Below are positions 19,212 through 63,822 of a DNA stretch of 64,000 nucleotides, piece by piece. The notes under the pieces are model-generated. The model saw nothing but the letters and a program-made list of their open reading frames with translations, did no database searches and was not told the DNA's origin. The DNA lies in the NCBI GenBank assembly GCA_010015805.1, contig ML978121.1, forward strand, positions 3,844,001 to 3,908,000, given 5' to 3'. The DNA is from Rhizodiscina lignyota (taxonomy: Eukaryota). The position numbers were made by a program, and so were the translations under genes. How positions within the stretch are numbered: position 1 is the first letter of the stretch; each line of letters begins with the position of its first letter.

Positions 19212-21020
19212 TCACCGCCCGCCCTCTTTAATTCGCACCGTGTCGCCAATATGTGGAAACGTGTCGCAGAACGCAGGCCCCAAGCTCCAATTGCTCAGGT
19301 CGCGAAGGTGCGATTCGAATGCCGGGTTCATGATGTACTTCGGCTGGGTATTACCTCCGCTGGATGAATCTTCCGATGGGGTGCCGCGTGAGCGCGTCTG
19401 GGATGCGGGTGTGGTAGAGGTTTGGTGGGAGGAGGGAGGTTGGTACAATGGGTTGCGAATAACGCAGTGGTGTGCTTCGTATGGCCAGTTGAGGGAGAGG
19501 GTGGTGGTGTAGGGAATGAAGAATTGGTCGAAGGGCATGACGGTTTGGGAGTTTACGAGGCGGTCGCGCATTCGTGGCCTAAACCCACACCATCCGTTAG
19601 CTGCTTCTATTTCCTTTCCTTTCTCCTTTGAGAGAATTGAAAAAGACGGAACCCACCAAGGTAAATACGTGCACCACAATGGATACGGCGTGAACAGCTG
19701 ACACGGCCTTGGCTGCACCCACTCGGGCATCAGCTCGTAGTTCTCCCGAGTCGGATGCACCTGCCACCGCATGATCAGGAACATGATATACACCACCGCG
19801 ACCTGCTCCGGCAGGCGGCTGATATCGGGAAAGGTGCGCAGGATGTCTGTGAATAGCTTGGACAGCTCGTGCGAGTGGTGCTCGCGGCCGGGCTCGATCA
19901 GCGGATCAAAGTTTGGGTATTTCGGCCCTACGAGAGTATTGCCGTCCACGCCTTCTGCGCTGCGGCGGCGGCGCTCCGTAAGGAAGTCGCCGAGGAGGGT
20001 GTCGAGGGGGCATGTTGGGGGGAGGTAGCGGGGGAGGGTCGACCATGCTTCTCGGTGGGGAGTGTCTGATGCGATGGAACGGGGAGGATCTTGGGGTGAT
20101 AGTGGTGTGGGCTGTGTGACGGCAATGCCATTCTGCAATTGAAGGTGTCGCTGGCTGCCGTCCAGCAAGAAATCAACGCCCAGTCTTTCATCGTTTGAGT
20201 GACCGAACGGAAGGTTTGGATCGAAGTTCCCACGCTGTACGTCGTACGGGATGGTTGGAGACTCGCCCATGTGCCAATTCCGCGATTGCTGGCCTTCTGG
20301 AGAATCTACGGCGGGGCCGGATCGGCCGGTGCTGATTTGCATGGCGGAGATGGAGCCATTGTATGAGGCGGCGTCATTGATGGAGGTATGTTCGCCTAGA
20401 CCGGGTTGGATTGGGATGGCATTTCTTTCTGCGGCGGCTGCAAGTTCTACAGGGATTCATTAGCAGCTGAGCAAAGCAGTAGATACACATATGACTTTGG
20501 AAATACAGGAAATAGGACAATTGAATCCAGCGGGTCTCCGATTGACATTGGCCTCCACGAGACTATCCAAAATGAAATACACATTCTTGTCCATAGCCTC
20601 CAATTGCTTTTCCAACGCAAAGTACAACTCACCATTCAAGCCCTGCGTTCCCAGCAGAGGCTGTATAATCCCAATTACCGTCGCTAGTCTCCTCTTTATA
20701 TCCTCATTCTCGGCCTGAACAGCCTCCTTCTGCCGTACCGCCTGCTGCAAATCATGGTACGGCTGCGCACTCTCGAGCTCCCGTATCCGCGCATTCAGCG
20801 AGTCGATCTGGTTCTTTGTGCGCTCGCGAATCGCCCTCTGCGCCTCGCGGTCATTGGCCCTCTTGCGCGCGAGCTGCTCGGGCGTGAGGTTCGCGACGCC
20901 GCGAGACGAGCTGCTGGCCGCGGCCGCGGTCTTCTTGCGCTTTGGAGGTGGCGGTTGCGAGCCGTCGTTGGGACTGGCGGCTGCTGATTCTGGGTTGTCG
21001 TCGCCGTTGACGTCGGGCAT
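19212..21020 (-). CDS. bZIP transcription factor with DUF3425-type C-terminal domain
   Basis: LARKRANDREAQRAIRERTKNQIDSLNARIRELE; C-terminal PEWVQPRPCQLFTPYP...LPW|PRMRD...HLRDLSNWSLG. Spliced, start codon uncertain. Confidence 0.85.
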
Positions 21021-47378: not shown

Positions 47379-49965
47379 ACGAGAAAATGACATCGGCATC
47401 AAGGAAAGAAAAGATCAGGATGGTTCGATGATTGCGAATGTGAAATGCGAATATCACGGCTAACGATCCATTTGCGATAGAAGGTTGATATGGCTCGATA
47501 CCGTATAGCTTTTGACGAATATGATACCTTCGATTCGCTTGTACTCCATTCGCGGCTGGCCTGAGAGTAGTTATAATGGCACGCCAATCAAGCTAACTAG
47601 CTAATAGAAGGTTTGGCGTGGGATAATCCCAAGTTGGCCGATTCGTCAATTTTGTTAAGGACAACTAAAAGTCTCCTCCCGTTTGAACTGTGCCGGATCC
47701 ATAATGAACTCACAGCGTGATCTTCCTTTGTCGGAAGCCTAGCTACAGCAATTTGCTTGTATGCTAAGCCGCCACTCGGTTGCGTTGCATATCTATTACC
47801 GCTAGGCATGTGATGGGCAATATCTCGCTATCTAAGCTAAAGTACAGTAAACATTAACGAGCTCAAGCTTGTCACGTCTTATAGAGTATGTACAGAAGCA
47901 GGTTTGTTATAGTTGAAATCGCTAATCCAATGTCTTTATGGAAGAATGTATGGGTTGCGTGAGGGCACAAAGGGATGGCCAATGAAAGCTGCAGTTTGTT
48001 GAGCCTCAGCCTTGCAAACTGAAAATATCTCAATTGAATAGACTAGTAAAAATCATATTGATTGTCGCCAAACGGTGCTTAAATGGAACTTTTTCTTGCT
48101 GATGCGAGCCAATAATCTTACATGGATCTAACTATTCGCCAACATCAACCTGATTCTGATGAGAATTATATTGATGCTCGGTTATCAGTGGCTATAGGCC
48201 TCTTTACTTGTGCTAATTAGTGTTACCTAAGATTTCCATGTCAGGACGTGCTTTATTAAGGAGTATCAAACTAAACAAATTAGGCCTCAAAGCCTGAATT
48301 GGTACCGCTTGATCAAGCACTACAGTTATGTGGTCATTGACTATATATTTGAAAGTAAATTTTAGTGTACTCACTTAATCAGAGTTGTCTGGTGTAGGGG
48401 GCAGCCCCCTCTACCTCCACAGCGTAACCGGAACTCGTTGTTCCAAATAACCCGCTGTTCCAAATGGAGTCAGTCTTTTAATGGGTTTCTAAAGACTTAA
48501 ATAACTACCTGTTCGATCCATGGTGGATCACCCTTTTTTTTTGGGCTGTAATTTTTTTTAAATCTTTTTTTCCCCTCCCACAGACTCGGGTCGATCCTCT
48601 TATATAACATACGCGATCCGATACTAGTTGACCTCGTATTTAAGAAAGAAGCTATTGAATTATTACTAACGAGCCCGGTTGATGGCTAGTCTTTGCTAGA
48701 TGTGGGTAGCTTTCAACTTGCACTCGCACCGTAGTTATCAGCCCCTTCTCCAGTCGAACTTTTACTGAAGTATAGATCCGATCCTAATCATCGCTTTAGA
48801 GGATACTGTGTATGGGAAATGGTCTTGTGTCACGCTGAAAACTTTCGTCCAAAGCTTCATCGATACTAGTAACATCCGAGACTATGAATGCTGGCTTAGC
48901 TCAGACTGGAAATAATTCTGGGTTGGGACGATCGTTCGGAGGAGCTTGGGAGTGAGAATGAACGAGGTAGGAAAGGAGAAATAAGAAGAGGACAGGGGTT
49001 TCATTTAATAAGGAATCTTGGACAGTATGACGAGGCAAGGAGAGAGGACAGTCCATGTGCCCCCGCTCAACTCTTAAGACTTATCTTCCATTGTCGATGC
49101 AGAACCTGAATACGCCGCGATATTCGCCGCGGCACGCAACGATGTCACTCCAGCGTCCTTACAGAAACATGGACACACGTATTTTTCCTTTCCTCCCCCC
49201 TCTCCCCCTCTCCCTTCTCTCACTTCTCAAAACACTATACCATAGACGCCTTGATGGCCGCTCAAAAGCTCTACACCAGTGCTGTATATATGACGCTGAG
49301 ACGTTTAAGGGTGTCGAATGTGCTCTTGAATTCACGCATGCCGACAGGCGCGAGGCATTACTCGATCTATATGCGTAAGCAACAAGTCGAGCGCCCGAGC
49401 ATAATCGAATTGAAGCTTGAGACCTGTGCGCCAGTTGGAAGCTTGGTAGGGGTGTTAAGTTGAGTTAAGACTTCACCTGCGCGTGGAAACTGTAAGCATA
49501 CACCCCAAAGAACGTAGAGCCGAGCTCTCGGAGATAGTCTCACTCACCTTAGAGTACAAGAGCTGGGGCGTTACTGCTTGCCTAGCGGGCAAATATTTTG
49601 TCACCCTCAAGCCATGCAACCTCACATGGACGTCACAAAAACTAAGAGATCACAATGCTCACGTTGCATGTATGAGAGGGCGATGTAGCACATAAACATT
49701 ATATATACTAGACGTATCATCAGCTTCGTTATCTTTACACGGCTCACATGCACTGCGGAAAACGAGATGGACTCAAGCTTGTCGATCCAACCATCAAACG
49801 CGCAAATGACCGGGTGCGCCAGTGCTACTGTATCCCATCCTAGCGCCAGTTTTGCAAATATGCATATCCATAGTTCAACTTCCCTCCAGATTATCATTCT
49901 TAGTAGAATCCATCCGTTCGCCTCATCGCATGCAATTTCCATCCCCTCATAGTCCCTCCAGGCCT

Positions 49966-53673: not shown

Positions 53674-56600
53674 TTACGCCACACTTGCGACAACGAGTGT
53701 CGCTACAGCCGGCTCATCGCTTCTCGCCTCGATCTTCATGGTCACACCCGTCTTCGCGCTGTACGCCATGCGCACCAGTGCCGCGACTTTGCCGCCGCCG
53801 ATTGTCTTACCGTAAAGCTTGAGCGTGTGCGTTGAAGAATTGAGCGCGACGTCTGTGCCTTCGAGCGGCTGGAGGGAGAGTGTCTTGGGGAGGGTCTCGA
53901 CTGCTTCTGTTCGGTTATCAGTAACTTGTAGTAGCAGTGATATTTGCGTAGCTCAAGCATGGGCTTGATGATGTTGGGAAGATGAAACATACCTGAGATA
54001 CTCTTGACTCCAGCCAATTGCAATGTCTCACTAGCCTCATCCGCCTCATCACCAGCGCCCGCCTGCTCCCATACATTGTCGAAGCTACCCGCATATGCCG
54101 GCAGGACGTAGTCACTACCACTGAGCTCTAGATCCTCAACCTGGTATTCGTCCTCGTATCCACCTTCTTCCGGCTCGCTTGTCGTCGGGTCGATTTCCTT
54201 AAGCGTGAATTTGAGCACATTGGTGAAGCTCGCAGCAACATATTTCTGCGCCTCTGGATCGACCTTCTTGAACGCGACATAAACCGTACCCGGAATGTCA
54301 GTGACGAGTTTCTCGGCTGGGATAATAAACTCTTCTTCCAGCATGGCACCGCCATCTTCGTCTTCCGATGGTGTAGAGACAAGAGAGACGTCGGCGAGAA
54401 CGGTGTCGGGAAGCGTGTTCTTGATAGAGAACTGTAGGACGATGTGGCTGGCGAAGATGTGCTTGATGCAGCTGACGACGTACTCGGTCTCGCTCTCGGT
54501 GAGTTCGACAGTGAGGCTGCTCTTGAGGACGCCACCGAATGCAGCAATCTCGGGGATCTTCTGCAGTTCGGCAGCATATTGCTGCGTGGCGGCAGCGGCG
54601 TTCTGGGCAGCGTCGGCACCGGCACCTCTCGCAGTTGGTTTCGGCCCGGTAGAGGGCGCCTTGAGAGTGGGAGTGGCGGTGGTGAGCTTCTTCGTGCGGT
54701 CTTCGGCGTCTGCTTGTTCGCGCGTGACGACAGGAATTTTGGAGAGGTCGAATGGCGTAGCGAAGGTCTCTTTTGAGGTATCCGTGACGTACATGACCAG
54801 TTGGTGCTCGAGGACAGGGAGGGAGAACATTGAGTCTACGGGACGTTAGCACCTATTGGACCGCGGAGGGTGTGTGCGCATTGAGGAACTTGCCATTCCT
54901 GATGAATCGCTCTGCCATATCTTCACCTTCCTCACCTTCCTTCTCCATCAACCGCAAGTTCAGCGCTGCGCGATCTCTGACTTCGTCGTCGGTGTCATCC
55001 AAACATCTTGTTAGTAGCACGTGCACGCTGCGCTTGACTTCGGGGTCCTTCTGTCCGACACCAAACTTGGCCAGGGCAGTGACTGCGGCGGCGCGAACGA
55101 TAGCATTTTCGAGTACGACGCGGTTGTAGATGTATCGGATGTATTTCGTCGGATGTGGTGTCTTGGGACCTTCCATACCGAGAAGGTGGAGGATGCGAAC
55201 AGCGAGCTTCGTAAACTCGCAGTCTTCGATGAATTCGCAGAGGTGTGCAAGGGCTGCAAACTATCAGAAGCATTCATGAAGAGAGGATTCTTAAACTTAC
55301 CGTCTTCCTTGCTCTCAGGCACAAACTTGATCAGGTCGAACATGCTCTCCACGACAGCTCGCTTGAACTCATAGCCGCCCTCATCTCTGAGGATGCCGCT
55401 GAGGAATGCAAGCATGCCCGCCTGCTTGCTTGGGAATTTGAGGCACAATGTGCGAATGGCTTCCACAATGGTAACCTTGAACTCGTCGGTGATCTCCGCC
55501 ATGAACCCAGATATCTGCTTCATCAAACGATCAACGCTCGACTCATTGCCAGTCTTCAGAAGCGTGGTGATGGCGAACGTGGCTATTGACCGGTTGCTGT
55601 TTGTGATGAGCGCCTCGATATCCTGATTGCACGTCCGTACCGAATCTGGCTTGAACGAGGCGAAGCTGTGCAAGATACGAATCGCTGCGAATTTGGTGAC
55701 AGCACGTGGGGAGGTTAGGAACAGCTGGAGGACATGAATGGCTTGGACGACTTCTGCATCTGTAACATCTTGCATGTCGCAGATGGCTTTTGCGGCCTCG
55801 AAGTTGACCATTTCGCTCTTGTGCCTTAGCCATCCATCGAGTAGTTGTATCATTGGTTTCCGCAAGCCAGGATCTTCCTCTGCAAGCTTAGCCGCTAGTC
55901 GTACGAGCATGACGGTTGCTGCTGGGCTCTTGACAACACCTGCAGCACTGTATTGTTGGACCATCTTGACCAGAGCCATTCTGTCATGCGATCGCATCTG
56001 GTATAGCAAGCCAATGGCGTGGTACTGTGTCATGTAATTTGGACTCGTCGTTGCTAGCGCATGACTGCTGGAGGATCCTCCAAAGCCAAGTGAGAAGCCA
56101 CCACCAGACTTTGCACCTGATGCGGCTTCCTGTGTCTCGCTTTGCCATCTTCGAACCACATCGCGCGCTATGGGAAGGAGGTGGTATGCGGAAACAAGTG
56201 CGGCGGAGGAGACGGAGGGGACCTTGTCGACAATGGCGGTTTTGATAGACCGCTCGATTGCTTGCACGGTTGAAGCCTAGACAGATATCAGCACCTTGAA
56301 ATGCCAGCCTCTGGAGATCAGTCTCTTACGTCTATTATCCGACACAATGCCCGAATGGCGTTTGCTCGATATACAACGTCGCTTCCCATAGCCGTATCCT
56401 TCATGATACTGCTCGTGACCATAATGATATCCTCCGCCGTTGTCGCCAGCTCCTTGATGACAAGGTATACCATCTGCCGTAAACTGGCATCTTTGTTCTG
56501 GAAGAGCTTCGATATGCCAAAGAAGAGGTCGGTGGCTTCGGTGGTAGGAAACTTCTCTCCCGTGAAGAGAAGGAGAGCAATCTTGGTGAGAAGGATGCGG

Positions 56601-56761
56601 CATTTTCGAGGCGAGACTGGAGAAGTATTGAAGACTCGCGCTACAACGTATCAGTTCATAGCATACGGGTAAGACTGTAACTGCACACCTTCTTGGAAGA
56701 CGGACGTTCTGTCCACCTTCACAAGAGCCCCGTCCACGTCCTCATCCTTCTTATAACTCAT
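53674..56761 (-). CDS. SEC21: coatomer subunit gamma
   Basis: [58 protein letters not shown]. Multi-exon. Confidence 0.96.
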
Positions 56762-57563
56762 TTTGTGTGAAATGTGGTGCGCGAAAAGAGAAGCTTCCTA
56801 GCCTCTTTGACAATTGCTTGAGTAGTGGGATTTTGAGGGTTGACCGCGAATTCCAACTTCGACGGAAGGTAGGAGGATGACCCAAGGGTTCTAGTCGTCC
56901 ATGCTCGGATGTACAACAATGAGTGAAGCGCTTGGAATAGAGAACGAAACGACTGCACAGCTTGGGAATGGCCCTTGGGTTCGTAATTCGAATTGCTGCT
57001 GTATTATTTCGAGGTGCGGTGTCCATTCACCATTCCAGGGTCAGCTCCGTCCTTGGCGTCCCCAATTCTGCTGCGGTCCGCCTCAGTCGCTATTTCAATT
57101 TCCTACAGCAAAACGAGAGGCAGAAAGATTGCAGTCTTACTCTCAGTTTGAATCTATATCTGTGATCGCCAAGGCCCCGCACTCATGCAACTCTACGTCA
57201 GTCATTTCCAATTGTTCAAATCTTCGATCTCAACTTCCATCATGCTTCTCTCATTGCGATGTATTCTCATCCGCCCAAGCATTGGCGTTAGCTAAGCCCC
57301 TCAAGCTCGTAACCTCATGCCCGAAAGGGCATAGACTCGTATAGGTCACCCTGAATTGGTATAGAATCTTGACGCGTAATTCGGCGAGCGGAGAGTTAAG
57401 TTTCAGGCGCCAACAATCCACTTCGCCGAGAGCCATAGTGGTATATGTAGGAGACATTTCCTTTCTTCCAAGCCAGAGCAGAATGCTCAGAATTTCACCT
57501 TTACGGCCAAGCGGGCTGAAGATTCACATTTAACGATACCGGAACTCCTGAGGCGCATAGCCA

Positions 57564-58864
57564 ATGATGGCTTTCTATGAAAGGTCTCGATCGCGGGGAA
57601 ACATCTTCTATCTTTCCATCACAGTCGCCTTCATTGTGACATTGCTCACGCTATGGCTTGGGCTGCTCTCATACACGACTCCTTTCCCAGCCGCCCCTCC
57701 CCACCAGGAACCGGTCGCAGCAGATGACGATAGTCATCATGGTATGGTTTTGAATCCTCTACAAGAAAATCCATGCATGAATGTTCCTAATTAATTTCCA
57801 GAGTCAGCAGACATCCAGAACCCAGAGAATTTAATTCAACTACAGCCCCAATTCTTCACAGACCTTGGCAGCAAGCGCGTCCAAATCAAATATGGACCGT
57901 TCACAGTACCCGGATCCGGCACCAACAATGGCATGAAAGATTTCGTGGACGAAAAAGCAACTAAGCCATGCGATGATTGCCTCATCACGTACATGCGGGC
58001 TGGCCTGCAGTACCCGGACGGAGCGAATGCAAATGCCAACACAGGCATGTGGCTGCACCATGTCGTGCTTCTCGATACTGCAGTGCCTGATACCGTGTGC
58101 CCAAAGGACCGGAAAGGTCGCCCAGTGCCAAATCGTTTCTTTGCGAGTGGTAACGAGAGGACGGCTATGGATCTGAGCGGCGCTAGGTATGTCCCATGGC
58201 ACCAGAGCAATACAATGTCCTGTTCGTGATATGGAATACGGACCTGTGCTGACCCTGAATGCACAGCACCATTCAGACTGGGTATTTCCTCAGCGCTCAG
58301 TCGCAAGTGGTTGTTACACTCGAGTTGATGAATCAAATGGCTGAGGCCAGAGAAGCCGTCCTTACGGTCGAATACGAGTTCATTCCTTCACCGATTCCAA
58401 AGTCTTTCAAGCATGCGAAATCCATTTGGCTCGATATCGGTGGCTACTGTGGCAATTCCGAAGCCTCCGTTCCAAACGACACATCGACTTTCGATTTCAA
58501 CATGCAGCCGGGATGGAAGGTTCCCGATGGTTGGGAGGAGAATTTGCTAGTCTTTCTCGGTGGCCATTTGCATGATGGCGGAACTCATTTGGAGGCCATG
58601 AAGAGCGGGGGCATCTTTTGCGACAGTGCAGCGACATACGGCGCAAACGATGATTTTATCGACGGGACGGGCGAGAAGATGGCTCATATATCGAACATGT
58701 CATTGTGTCACAAGGCGACGACGCTTAAGGCGGGAGATGAGCTGAGCGTTAAGGCTTATTATGACAAGACGGCGCATCCTATGATGGTGGATGCAGATGC
58801 GAGTTTGGAACCAGTGATGGGAATTGCGATTTTATATGCGGCGCAAAGTGAGGGAGGGAATTGA
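57564..58864 (+). CDS. signal-anchored uncharacterised protein with His motifs resembling PHM-type copper monooxygenases
   Basis: Three exons; N-terminal hydrophobic segment; MWLHH, FFASGNER, GGHLHDGG, PVMGI. Confidence 0.7.
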
Positions 58865-60223
58865 TGAGTCGATGTACATTCAAAGATATATGCTTGGGAA
58901 TATCCGGCCAGTCTAATCTAGTTAGTTGGAACATTGTACCCCCGTCATTCATCCTAAAGTACTATCTGTCAAGGAATCTGCGCCGCATTCAGCTTCAAAC
59001 CACCGCTGAACGTGCGCTAGTTTGTTGACCGTCCGTATAGGCTCCTGCATTCGTGAAAGGGTGTACATCAAATTCCTTCCCAGATTCTTGTGGCTATCGA
59101 TGAATTCGCACTACTTCTCGAACTTTTTCTCGTTAAGTCGTACCATACCTACGAAAAATTGTAAGAGAATCCCTCTATTCCAGTGCCATTGCATCGTTTC
59201 CGCGTATGATTGTAAAGCTATCGTTTGACGTAATTCGGGAGCTACTTCCTTGCTTGGCGCTGACTTGGGGATATTCGACTGTGCTGGCCTGCACCATCCT
59301 TCTGCATAAGACCGTCTCCGGAAGTACGCAGACCTATTAGCAAATAACAGAAAGCAGAAAGCTCCCAGGTAAGAAAAGCTTGCATTCAGTTATCTTGGGG
59401 ATCCGCCTTTTGATTTTCTTGCAGCCTTTAACTGCTCCACTTTTGCGCACAGTCGTTCCTCGACTTTGTCGCTACAGACTTATAAATTTGGCAATGGTTC
59501 AGTCGCCTACGGTAAGCTGAGCTTGCGCTCTGTCCGACTCCGTAACATGCGTGAGGACCGGTATTGTTCATTGACGAATCGAAAGGAAGAGCGGATCGTC
59601 GACAATCGAGGAGAGAAGTGGACCAAATGTCCTCGATTCTGCTCCAGTCTGCTGCTCTCGCTCGACTTCATCCCAATGTTATCTCAGATTGAACCAAGAA
59701 TTTGAAACCAAAAACATGATTCAAACTTAGTTGCGAGCCACTGCATATGACCATTATGTACTTGAGCATTTGGATAAGGCACAAGGTCTTAATGGATCCA
59801 TGCTTCAATCATAGCGGGCAACGTATTCAAATAAACAATCGCTACTCTTGTAGCACTAAAGGGTTGTATGTTTCATTATTGGAATCTGAATGCGCTGGAG
59901 CTACCATTGATTAGACGTCTAATGCTTTTGGCTCCATTCCGCATCCTTTTCCTTTCACGCTCTGTCAGCGTTGTCGGCGTAAGGTTTGATTTGTTTAAAA
60001 TACTCCGTAGTCGTTGCGTATCGTATCATTACCCTGGCACGCAAGAACAAATTCCTCAGTGTGCTACCGTAGTGAATTTCGTTGTAAGACCGATAATATG
60101 CGTGGTGCTATCTGCTACGCGTCGTTATAGTTCGCCCAAGGTCACACAGGGCACGATATCACCACCAAACGCCAAAAGAACCATGAGTGAATAGCAAAAG
60201 GAAGAAGGGACAAAAAAAATACC

Positions 60224-60421
60224 AAAAAATAATGGACAGTCTTAGTTTCATCTTATTAAGATTACTCACACCCAGTACCACGAGAAGGTGCTGTCCGTTA
60301 CTGAGCGCCTAAATGTTAGTATTTTGATCCCTTCGGGGATCGAACCACCCTGCAACACGTTAACCGTACCCGTTCTTTTCAGTTTAATCTCTGTACCGAT
60401 TACCCCACGATGCCCGAAGGC
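60224..60421 (-). ncRNA. putative Pol III-transcribed, intron-containing U6-like small RNA (~137 nt spliced)
   Basis: TATATAA at -31, 5' GCC-UUCG-GGC hairpin, A-box-like TGGGGTAATCGG, ACAGAGA, intron 60369-60309 (GTACGG/TACTAAC/TAG) containing B-box GGTTCGATCCC, 3' stem, T6 terminator. Confidence 0.75.
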
Positions 60422-60887
60422 GATAGTCTGTAAAACTTAAGTTAATTATATAGTCAACAACCACATAACACCGTACGTAGAACTTGGGCTTACAAGAATA
60501 TTTTCGTATAGGTTTCTTTTGGAGCAGCGTTCAGTTAACGTTAAACACGCCCATTCTTGTAAGTTGTGCTTCCTTTCCTATTACTCGGGGTAAAAGGGAG
60601 CACTGCAATTCCGTGCAGCAGTCTTCTGAAAGGCCCATATACCTACACTTCCTTTCCCTGACAACGGAGTCAGCGACAGTCGCTGTCCATGAAAGCGGTT
60701 CAATGTTCACTGAGTAATGTTGATAGATATAAGGCATCAAAGGAGACATATTGGAAAAGAATATGTTGGAGGAGTTCTTGGATCCTGACGTCTACGGAAA
60801 GCGATCATAACAGAATCCTACCCATAACAAACGCTCAACCTGTACCGCACAGAATCCAGCACGCTCTCAGCGTTCTCATACACATCA

Positions 60888-63822
60888 TCAATTATCCTTC
60901 ACACCTCTAGCTCTCCTCCTCACCCTCGTCCCGACGCCACCGCTGTCCTCCAGACTGATACCCATATCTCTAACAACGCCGACACTCTCGCTAGCAATAA
61001 CCCTCCTACCGACGACTTTTCCGCCCATCCTGCGAATCATGTCCTCCCTCTCGCGCTGCACCGACGCGTCTTCAAAGACGAGTGCTTGACTCGGCAGCGG
61101 AGGCTGCTTCTGCAGCGCTTGTGTCGCAGGCCCCGGATTATCCGACGTAATCGAGCTGGTCCTGGACAACGGGTTTGATCCTGGGCCCCCGGCGCCGGAG
61201 GTTGAAGGGTTAGATGTCGTAGAACCGGCGCGGCCCAGAACGCGTCGGTTTCGTCGACGGGGTTGGTTCGCTTCGGGAACGTCAGCTGGAGGGGGGATGA
61301 CATCCTTTGCGGAGGGAGGTCGCGCGGCTTGCTTCTGGGCGAGGAGGACCGATATCGCATTATGGATATACCGTGAATTGTTTGGTTTGGGGACATCTCC
61401 ATCTTCAGTTTCACCTTCAGATGGTTGCTTGGCTTGTGTAGATGGCCCCGATGTATCGCCCGCTGGCGGCGTGTTCTCGTCGACTTGAGAGCTCTGCGCG
61501 CCATCAAGTGCTGGGACATCTCTGGTATCGGTCTGAGATTGAGATTGAGACTGAGAGCGGCGTGCAGAGCTGTTCACTTCCGGTGGAAGTTCTTGCAGAG
61601 GGCGAGCACTGGATACGGACTCGGGAGGGTCATCTTCGTCGCGGGCGGGCATGGGAGCTTGAGATCTGGAGGAGTCGAAGCCGTCATCCAGAGCACGCAG
61701 TTTCTTAATATCTTCTGGTGGACGCTCTTTTAGAGGATGGGTACGGGCGGCTGGCTCGAGAGGGGGTTCATGCACTTTGCGAGCAGTCGTCGGAGCTTGT
61801 GACTTGGAAGGTTTGAAGCCGTCATTGAGAGACCGCGGTTTCTTGAACTCGGAATTATTCGTTTTTGGTGCTGCTGGTGTAGACCTATAGAAATGAGTAA
61901 GCCATTGTATTATTAAACGACATGGTTTCAACCCGGAGAAAGCGACTCGGGCCATGAGACTGGCGATTCGAGGCTTTGGAAGCGTGAGCGACGATGTGCG
62001 ACATTCTATTAAGCGCGCGAAAGAGTATGATTAAGGGGGGGGGGGGAGTGCCTACCTGTGCTGTTCCTCCGGCTTCTGGAGCTTCACCGTATCTTGAGTC
62101 CGGGCTTGCGATACCTCAAATGCGGGATAGCGCTGGAGCCTAGGTGTCTTGCTGTATCCTTCAGTCTTCTCGGAAATGGCGTCAAGGAGGTAGTCGTCGA
62201 CGGGGTCTAGTTTCCCGTTATGGTAACTCATCCATAGCCATCTAGCATTAACGACTGGAATCCCGTAGCGGACCGCAAACTGCAGCTTCTCCTGATTTGG
62301 AGTTTCAGAATTGCAGATAAGAACAGATGTTCCTTCTTTGAGATATTCATCGTATCTCCCTCCCATCATTTTGATGAATTTGGCCAAGTGGAGGATGTTA
62401 ATAGGAGCGAATCCAGTTGAGCAGACGACAACATCCTCGAAGCCTTCTATATGAGACTTTCGAGGAGGGCAGCATAATATCTGCAATGTTTCGTCGTCTG
62501 CGGGCTCAACCACTATCTTGCTATGCAGGCAAGTTTCAACCCAGCACTCATTCACCAACTGGAATTTGGCATCGTCTACGATATAATCGTACCGATGCAC
62601 ATGCGTGTCGTGCGGGACAACTAGAAAGCCATCGACCTGTTCGTCTTCAGCGGCCTCACGTAGCTCATCCAGCGAAACGACAACGGCGTCGTTTGATATG
62701 AGGTGCTGACGTAAAATAGAAGTCTTCTTCTCATCAAATCCGTCAATAGAGACAAGCCGATGTTGGAAAATTCCCGCCCGCTGCAGCTTGCGAGACGGTG
62801 CAAGTGCAAGTTTGCCATCGTTATGAGAAGGCTCAGGATCAGGTTCTTGTGTCTCCTCTTCGGTACGCTTCGACATTGTTTGCGAATCGACGTCACCCTC
62901 TTCAGGTTGCACATCCGGTTCTTTGTGGTCTTTTTGCTGAGAAGTGATATCTGCCCACATTGCACCGGCCTGGCTGCCAAATTTCTCACTGACTGTCCTC
63001 CTGAGCTTTCGTCGACTGGGAGCTTGAGCAGCTGTTTGTTCGTCCTCCTGTCTCGGTCTCTTACCAATTACAGACTCCAGTGGCATCTTTCGCCATGCGC
63101 CTTGGCCTCTTTCTTCCGATGGAATATTCGGATCGTACAATGTCTCATCCAGAGCCATCCCACGCACGATACTCTCATTCAGCCATTCGAGCGAAACAAC
63201 TTTGACGTTCCATTGGCGCGCATATTCGTACTTCTTTCCTTTTGGAGCGGCAGCGATGAGGTGGGTGATGTCTCGAGTCAAGTCGCCGCTATACTCTGCA
63301 CCAGATCTTCTAACATTTTGGGAGATTTCCTCTCTTTCGTCTAGATCGTCAAATCCAGTAAGACATATCTTCAGGCCGAGGAATGGTGGTGCTCGATATT
63401 CATCCTCCAGTGCTCGTACATCGACATCCTCAGCGGCCATCCAAGTGTCACGTACAGCAAGAACCCAATCCGGGGTCAAGACCTTGATATCGGGGCGTTC
63501 TTTTGCGACGTATCTGTATTTCGGGGTATTAATGTCGCCGATTAAAAGATGCGTCACGTCAGAGGTGAGGTCGTATTTGTGCTCGGCGCCCATTTCCGCT
63601 GCAATTGCGGATATTTTTGTCTGTACAGGAAGGAGGTATTAGTCGAATTGAATGGGTTTACAACTCTGCCTGATCGTAGGACTGGGCACTGACGCGATCC
63701 TCTGGGCCGATGGATGTACAGCACAAAACAACGCCTTTCAAAGGCATCTGGCTGGCGTTCTAACTGGCTGTCAGCTTCAATAATGGCCGACACGAACGGA
63801 GTGGACACACTTCTGCTGCCAT
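60888..63822 (-). CDS. DPB11: BRCT-repeat replication/checkpoint scaffold (Dpb11/Rad4/TopBP1)
   Basis: PLKGVVLCCTSI, MGAEHKYDLTSDVTHL..TPKY, GLKICLTGF..YSGDLTRDITHLI..GKKY; four BRCT-like units. Start inferred through a short first exon. Confidence 0.9.

Follow-up and report, generated by a model that had tools for sequence, protein, structure and literature searches.

The subject of the present analysis is a short locus on the minus strand (60212-60467) of a 64,000-nucleotide (nt) stretch of the Rhizodiscina lignyota genome (assembly GCA_010015805.1, contig ML978121.1, positions 3,844,001 to 3,908,000); the whole stretch is referred to as the window, and its own numbering is used throughout. 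Judged from sequence, the locus is held with moderate confidence to be one copy of a repeated unit of the RNA polymerase III (Pol III) type, consisting of a leader, a self-cleaving ribozyme resembling that of hepatitis delta virus (HDV) and a terminator. A preliminary description had seen here a U6-derived Pol III RNA, the two 'exons' of which would be joined across a spliceosomal intron, with a non-U6 3' half. That half is now read as a complete HDV-like fold at 60308-60230, and 'exon 2' can quite confidently be taken for a ribozyme fold of this type. The individual features are collected in Table 1.

Table 1 Features predicted or read at the candidate ribozyme locus and at the second locus with the same upstream element (locus B), followed by summed contig depth along the former
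Feature	Position	Strand	Basis or remark
Upstream element, 23 nt, ending in the TATA box	60447..60469	-	21/23 positions identical to 48325-48347 (+), locus B
TATATAA box	60446..60452	-	31 nt before the putative start
Putative start G, opening a 3-bp UUCG hairpin	60421; hairpin 60421-60412	-	Start placed from TATA spacing alone
A-box-like 12-mer	60407-60396	-	Loose A-box match
ACAGAGA	60394-60388	-	Sequence reading
'Intron', 61 nt: GTACGG from 60369, TACTAAC 60321-60315, AG ending 60309	60309..60369	-	Signals present, use unsupported
B box GGTTCGATCCC	60346-60336	-	Within 6-bp hairpin 60341-60326
Predicted leader (5' cleavage product), 113 nt	60309..60421	-	Holds UUCG hairpin, A-box-like motif, ACAGAGA, B box
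Predicted cut	between 60309 and 60308	-	Ribozyme's own 5' edge
Predicted HDV-like self-cleaving ribozyme, 79 nt	60230..60308	-	Weak match to Rfam drz-agam-1, and descriptor
P1	60308-60301 with 60275-60268	-	8 pairs, 3 of them G.U; the first is the G.U wobble at the cleavage site
P2	60300-60291 with 60239-60230	-	10-nt arms, 9 pairs, one C.A mismatch
P3	60289-60287 with 60279-60277	-	Rfam alignment
L3, 7 nt	60286-60280	-	U at position 1 (60286), G at position 6 (60281)
P1.1	60284/60285 with 60267/60266	-	2 pairs
P4	60262-60258 with 60254-60250	-	Rfam alignment
J4/2, C-U-A-A	60247-60240	-	Candidate catalytic C 60245; A 60243, A 60242
T6 and T8 Pol III-type terminators	60229-60224; 60219-60212	-	Right after the last P2 pair; sequence reading
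Locus B, second Pol III-type unit	48325..48560	+	Common upstream element and TATA; body unrelated; no ribozyme
Summed depth, 141-148	flanks
Summed depth, 1881-3284	60228-60307		13-22x flanks
Summed depth, 921	60308-60323
Summed depth, 649	60324-60371
Summed depth, 803-1069	60372-60403
Summed depth, 1607-1947	60404-60435		about 11-13x flanks
Summed depth, 1052	60436-60451
Summed depth, 460	60452-60467

All helices of the nested double pseudoknot P1-P1.1-P2-P3-P4 with a 7-nt L3 can form in the 3' part of the locus, and the fold reaches exactly from the AG at 60309 to the T6 run. Structural work on HDV has defined a core consisting of the G.U wobble at the cleavage site, a U and a G in L3 and, in J4/2, a catalytic C followed by N-A-A; the corresponding residues—G60308.U60268, U60286, G60281, C60245, A60243 and A60242—are all present. 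What had been described previously as a 3' stem is helix P2 of this fold, and the 'UCAGU' supposed to pair across the exon junction lies in P1. Concerning Rfam, the sole match to the 3' block was drz-agam-1 (RF01787), no other HDV-like family being listed; it covers 60307-60235 at 14.1 bits (E = 8.6 on 901 nt and 0.94 on 98 nt), which is far below the gathering score of 37 and not significant alone. The alignment includes P2, P4, the C-U-A-A of J4/2 and the P3/L3/P3' core, the last with 12 of 13 positions identical to the consensus. The helices P1 and P1.1 pair completely by reading and are left unscored by the covariance model; because such a model cannot score pseudoknot helices, they provide an independent check.

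A descriptor of the HDV core was composed of P1, P1.1, P2, P3, a 7-nt L3 with U1 and G6, P4, a J4/2 of the form C-N-A-A and the G.U wobble. With the core residues required, it has one match in the window, at 60308, compared with 2 in 968 simulated 64-kb windows searched on both strands (about 0.002 per window), this frequency being optimistic since the core constraints, taken from the HDV literature, were chosen after the sequence had been seen and one tolerance was widened after an initial miss. P4 is a helix free to vary in HDV-like ribozymes, and the differences observed in the ribozyme among paralogous copies (60254, 60255, 60257 and 60262) all fall within it, the one at 60262 replacing an A-U pair by G.U. 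One sequence, the descriptor test and coarse paralog data are the basis for identifying the ribozyme.

The low Rfam score and the optimistic descriptor frequency count against the proposed reading, and several further points have to be placed beside them. The structure-only form of the descriptor is unselective, yielding 2 matches in the window compared with a mean of 1.49 in 300 simulated windows; its other match, at 19306 (+), is without the core residues and at the chance rate. Single-strand folding of the locus is not unusually stable with regard to shuffles, the z values being +0.18 for 60421-60224, -0.61 for 'exon 1', -0.92 for the 'intron' and -0.39 for the 85 nt of 'exon 2' in an ordinary fold. 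There is a C.A mismatch in P2, and P1 possibly has 8 pairs, 7 being usual in HDV-like ribozymes. The good intron signals are left unexplained by the ribozyme model. Finally, no relative from another species was found in the scans performed, hence no covariation: a 22-nt stretch of the ribozyme core had 0 matches in genome contigs and 0 in viral contigs, and the 23-nt promoter pattern had 0 in metagenomes. The pattern CTTCGG–TACAGAGA–B-box was found at 13 metagenome loci, none of them resembling, by reading, U6 or the present locus; their appearance is that of bacterial DNA matched by chance, with tRNA-like sequence beside most of them.

The Pol III character of the locus, already proposed in the preliminary description, is supported by its motifs, all of which were found on the minus strand by direct reading of 60560-60100, as well as by a promoter element that is used again at a second locus. 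Pol III genes of the hybrid type have a TATA box about 30 nt upstream and an A box about 15-20 nt past the start. Such a layout is seen here: a TATA box, an A-box-like motif, a B box downstream and a T-run terminator, with no run of four or more T inside the unit (60421-60230 on the minus strand, by sequence reading). The B-box match by itself is weak evidence; its consensus GGTTCGANYCC occurs once in the window, the shuffle mean being 0.27, and at least once in 24 of 100 shuffles. There are six B-box-like sites in the window with at most one mismatch, and the present one is the only site having both a TATA box within 220 nt upstream and a run of five or more T within 220 nt downstream. The motifs are thus weak when taken singly and more informative in combination. 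A tRNA gene was considered and rejected, ARAGORN having predicted 0 tRNA genes in the window.

The second locus, locus B, was revealed by self-comparison of the window. The 23-nt upstream element has two matches in the window, and none of 100 shuffles contained any. The spacing between the TATA box and the A-box-like motif (near 48391 at locus B) is, by reading, the same at both loci; locus B further has GTTCGATCC at 48511-48519 within a hairpin, followed by T10, T8 and T7 runs. When the two loci are aligned, their likeness is confined to the upstream region, the transcribed bodies being unrelated. The body of locus B, about 165 nt long, folds moderately better than shuffles (z = -2.45), and it matched neither any Rfam family nor the HDV-like descriptor. 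Two different bodies standing behind one upstream element and both ending in T runs argue, as far as motifs can tell, for the element being a real Pol III-type small-RNA promoter.

Some minor observations concern the same pair of loci. At 60341-60326 (-) and at 48514-48528 (+), GATCC (the 3' half of the B box) serves as 5' arm of a short hairpin, with GGATC as the opposite arm and an A after it; this B-box hairpin module is common to two otherwise unrelated predicted transcripts. The aligned 3' flanks (60201-60229 on the minus strand and 48527-48582 on the plus strand) are alike in style, each with a T run, a few bases, another T run and a C/T-rich CCCTYC. In addition, at 48600-48690 (+) another TATATAA is found about 50 nt past the last T run of locus B, followed by the intron-like order GTATTT...TACTAAC...TAG, an arrangement that may represent the start of a neighbouring Pol II gene.

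The candidate ribozyme locus is one of a multi-copy family. In the contigs of a DNA run from the organism, 25 pieces align to 60100-60560 at a likeness of at least 80%, eight of them at 99% or more, seven at 95-99%, seven at 90-95% and three below 90%. The summed contig depth (Table 1) is raised 4-22-fold across 60212-60467 and 4.5-7-fold at 60324-60403; it should be noted, as a further point against the proposed reading, that depth sums are not copy numbers, and that the short contigs show the linkage of the 5' and 3' repeated blocks only within about four near-identical copies. Over 60324-60371, the value of 649 is due to one contig alone, 146 nt long (60282-60427) and carrying 2 differences. 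Many copies have the start region and the 3' 80 nt in common; the segment with ACAGAGA and the 'intron' is found in only a few near-identical ones. Self-comparison found only one copy of the unit within the window. Upstream, the likeness between copies ends at 60451-60461, one copy continuing to about -60 with a 6-nt deletion. On the other side, past 60224 or 60212 on the minus strand, the other copies run on into further T runs.

With respect to the 3' end, the T run is kept among the copies and the GG following it is not, which favours a terminator over an Sm site; the latter, considered at T6GG, was rejected. Also rejected were a long terminal repeat (LTR) element or a miniature inverted-repeat transposable element (MITE), no terminal repeats being seen by reading, and a 30-codon open reading frame (ORF) running through the T runs, as it extends past the repeated block. 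One difference between the run and the window was observed at 60347, just 5' of the B box, where the run has G and the window A on the plus strand; since the contig carrying it is a collapsed multi-copy one, this is probably a paralog difference and not an error.

If the unit is organized as proposed, TFIIIB and TFIIIC would be recruited to the TATA box and its upstream element as well as to the internal A- and B-box-like motifs, and Pol III would initiate near 60421. The 113-nt leader—with its 5' hairpin, A-box-like motif, variable segment and B-box hairpin—would be made first and the 79-nt ribozyme after it, transcription terminating in the T6 or T8 run. Upon emergence of the 3' strand of P2, the double pseudoknot would fold and cut between 60309 and 60308, so that the leader product would carry the 5' hairpin and a 2',3'-cyclic phosphate end with no U tail, and the ribozyme product would start with a 5'-OH and retain the U tail.

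As regards the role of the unit, the copies keep the promoter, the start hairpin and the ribozyme, and vary in the middle. Constant ends with a variable middle are expected of a selfish or recently expanded repeat, and also of a cassette with different inserts. It is our guess that the family is of the former kind, this being likelier than a splicing regulator. The latter arrangement—a dozen or more Pol III cassettes with a common promoter, a 5' hairpin and a 3' ribozyme removing the U tail from different inserts of about 95 nt—is considered unlikely. Were it true, the cassettes would deliver diverse small RNAs with 2',3'-cyclic phosphate ends, the variable parts of which could serve as guides, decoys or antisense RNAs, and the insert of the present copy would be one holding the splice-signal look-alikes ACAGAGA, GTACGG and TACTAAC.

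The alternative advanced originally, i.e. a U6-derived Pol III RNA with a B box inside a 61-nt spliceosomal intron (60369-60309), spliced to about 137 nt and acting as a regulator or decoy, is judged very improbable. In U6, the AGC triad comes about 5 nt after ACAGAGA and is followed by the internal stem-loop. The absence of both had already been pointed out together with the conclusion that the RNA is no canonical U6, and this holds: direct reading finds TTAAAC... after ACAGAGA instead, and no Rfam match to U6 was obtained. At gathering scores nothing was found by Rfam in the whole window, and a permissive search (E≤10) of 59900-60800 and 60360-60430 gave neither U6 (RF00026) nor any other small nuclear RNA (snRNA). 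The 5S, signal recognition particle (SRP), RNase P/MRP, U1, U2, U4, U5, U3 and small nucleolar RNA (snoRNA) candidates were likewise rejected for lack of a match in the window and in the permissive slices, which here also included 60215-60312. ACAGAGA, with 9 occurrences in the window compared with a shuffle mean of 10.4, is found at chance frequency and hence carries no information. The locus is, moreover, not single-copy, and among the copies of the family ACAGAGA and the 'intron' recur least.

Resemblance to the U6 genes of fission yeast and other fungi is seen in the upstream TATA box, the 5' hairpin, the A-box-like motif, ACAGAGA, the B box within an intron-like segment and the T-run terminator; unlike those genes, the locus lacks the AGC triad, the internal stem-loop and a Rfam U6 match, is multi-copy with a poorly shared ACAGAGA region, and has a 3' half that adopts, by prediction, a ribozyme fold. 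B-box matches are reportedly present in the U6 introns of Schizosaccharomyces. The 5' repeated block could be common to the species' own U6 genes. Introns in fungal U6 genes speak for the spliced alternative: there may be up to four per gene, and the intron of S. pombe U6 adjoins the catalytic triad (PMC5855946).

The intron signals themselves also favour splicing, with GTACGG, a perfect TACTAAC and a TAG, the YAG being placed 7 nt past the branch A, in the proper order and spacing over 61 nt, a typical length for fungal introns. A strict pattern (GTRNGN, 25-75 nt, TACTAAC, 2-18 nt, YAG) occurs only three times in the window, the other two occurrences being located between open reading frames of coding genes. 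The signals are therefore not trivial; their use, however, is unlikely. 'Exon 2' fits a ribozyme whose predicted cut coincides with the proposed 3' splice site. One phosphodiester cannot serve both for self-cleavage and for splicing, the former removing the 3' exon, and the apparent 3' splice site is probably the ribozyme cleavage site. Among the contigs of the DNA run there is no copy without exactly 60369-60309; one contig skips 60292-60371 instead, which is not the intron.

A mobile element is a rather doubtful, albeit better founded, explanation. It would be a short non-autonomous retroelement resembling a short interspersed nuclear element (SINE) or a retrozyme, either with a Pol III head and an HDV-like ribozyme or as a ribozyme with a T tail that landed behind Pol III-type genes; the RNA of the element would be trimmed by its ribozyme in the manner of R2, L1Tc/NARTc and the Schistosoma SINEs that bear hammerheads. 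The unit does occur in multiple copies, which break off sharply at the T runs and close to the TATA box, and the decrease in depth from the ribozyme (13-22x) through the start (11-13x) to the middle (4.5x) is as expected if some copies consist of the ribozyme only or have a different head. An association with retroelements is the rule among eukaryotic HDV-like ribozymes, and some SINEs carry ribozymes (PMC6765202, PMC3185411). The multi-copy, dispersed state agrees with a SINE. On the other hand, there is no direct repeat of 6 nt or more between the flanks of the present copy, i.e. no target-site duplication, no A-rich tail or tail like that of a long interspersed nuclear element (LINE), and the ribozyme is situated at the 3' and not the 5' end of the unit. 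The copies do not begin at the transcription start, their likeness reaching upstream of it into the TATA box, a region that would be missing from a retroposed Pol III transcript. The upstream element is, moreover, also that of the unrelated locus B, and no reverse-transcriptase gene was found among the five ORFs scanned nearby (55011-63593).

It is improbable, too, that motifs have merely come together by chance in a repeated non-functional sequence having neither dedicated transcription nor catalysis. The weakness of the single motifs (the B box and ACAGAGA), the lack of any fold at the present locus more stable than shuffles, the sub-threshold Rfam match and the absence of homologues from the metagenome, genome-contig and viral-contig scans are all compatible with such an assembly. 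Against it stand the promoter 23-mer recurring with matching geometry at a second locus and in no shuffle, the rarity of the core-residue descriptor, the exact fit of the ribozyme between the leader and the T run, and the confinement of the listed paralog differences in the ribozyme to P4.

The main known sources of HDV-like ribozymes are hepatitis delta virus itself, animal introns and the 5' ends of retrotransposons, to which phage tRNA genes have recently been added. The predicted ribozyme of the Pol III-type unit is similar to those of HDV, CPEB3, drz-Agam-1 and relatives (the nearest model being RF01787) in the order and size of P1, P2, P3, L3, P1.1, P4 and J4/2, and it shares with HDV-like ribozymes the G.U at the cleavage site, the U and G in L3 and the C-N-A-A in J4/2, as well as the predicted cut at its own 5' edge and the multi-copy occurrence. 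By its score the locus belongs to no Rfam HDV-like sequence family; with 14.1 bits versus 37, it is not a member of the drz-agam-1 one. It differs further in coming from an ascomycete and in its place, directly ahead of a T-run terminator as the 3' part of a short unit, and not at the start of a retrotransposon or within an intron.

In eukaryotic repeats, HDV-like ribozymes are widespread and frequently multi-copy, and ribozymes are carried by some SINE-like Pol III elements (PMC6765202); R2, the Pr77 of L1Tc/NARTc and the Pol III SINE-like elements of Schistosoma are, like the present family, repeated short units combining a promoter with a self-cleaving ribozyme, which frees their RNA from upstream sequence (PMC6765202, PMC3185411). 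In contrast to them, the present copy has no ORF, no conserved downstream body and no target-site duplication, and its promoter is partly external (TATA box plus upstream element); the Schistosoma ribozymes, in addition, are hammerheads and not HDV-like folds. In theta ribozymes, an HDV-like ribozyme likewise lies directly 3' of a small RNA, the 3' end of which is made by the cleavage; these ribozymes are of bacteriophage origin, minimal and lacking P4, and they follow a true tRNA (PMC10879173). The present locus is eukaryotic, its predicted ribozyme is full-size, with P4, and its upstream RNA is not a tRNA. The theta ribozymes behind phage tRNAs and the ribozyme-bearing repeats of R2, L1Tc/NARTc and the Schistosoma SINEs would nonetheless be the nearest functional analogues. 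A partial parallel is offered by yeast RPR1 and SNR52, which are Pol III genes with their A and B boxes in a leader removed after transcription by protein enzymes, the downstream RNA being the RNase P RNA or a snoRNA. Here, too, the promoter elements are in a 5' leader separated from a downstream structured RNA; unlike in yeast, the removal would be autocatalytic and the downstream RNA would be the ribozyme alone. As to fungi, the sole mention of an HDV-like fold found in the literature, within the text available, is a remark on unpublished laboratory data from Penicillium (PMC3185411).

Concerning the genomic neighbourhood, the adjacent ORFs encode BRCT and adaptin/coatomer-type domains, the BRCT protein grouping with Ascomycota proteins. 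A low-complexity ORF of 355 codons with no Pfam domain (60888-61955) is likewise on the minus strand, its end being 420 nt upstream of the locus, so that the repeat unit may be situated within, or shortly past, the 3' region of that gene.

From a methodological point of view, the case warns that splicing of a small RNA gene is not proved by intron signals of good consensus. The 23-nt upstream element, present at two unrelated genes, may define a class of fungal small-RNA promoters useful for the expression of guide RNAs. If the proposed reading is true, the final position in a Pol III-type unit of a filamentous ascomycete would represent a new setting for a full-size HDV-like ribozyme, and the unit a natural equivalent of the promoter–RNA–HDV ribozyme cassettes engineered to provide guide RNAs with exact 3' ends. 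It would also mean that Pol III transcripts can escape the oligo-U/La pathway via self-cleavage, and it would provide fungi with a documented family of HDV-like ribozymes.

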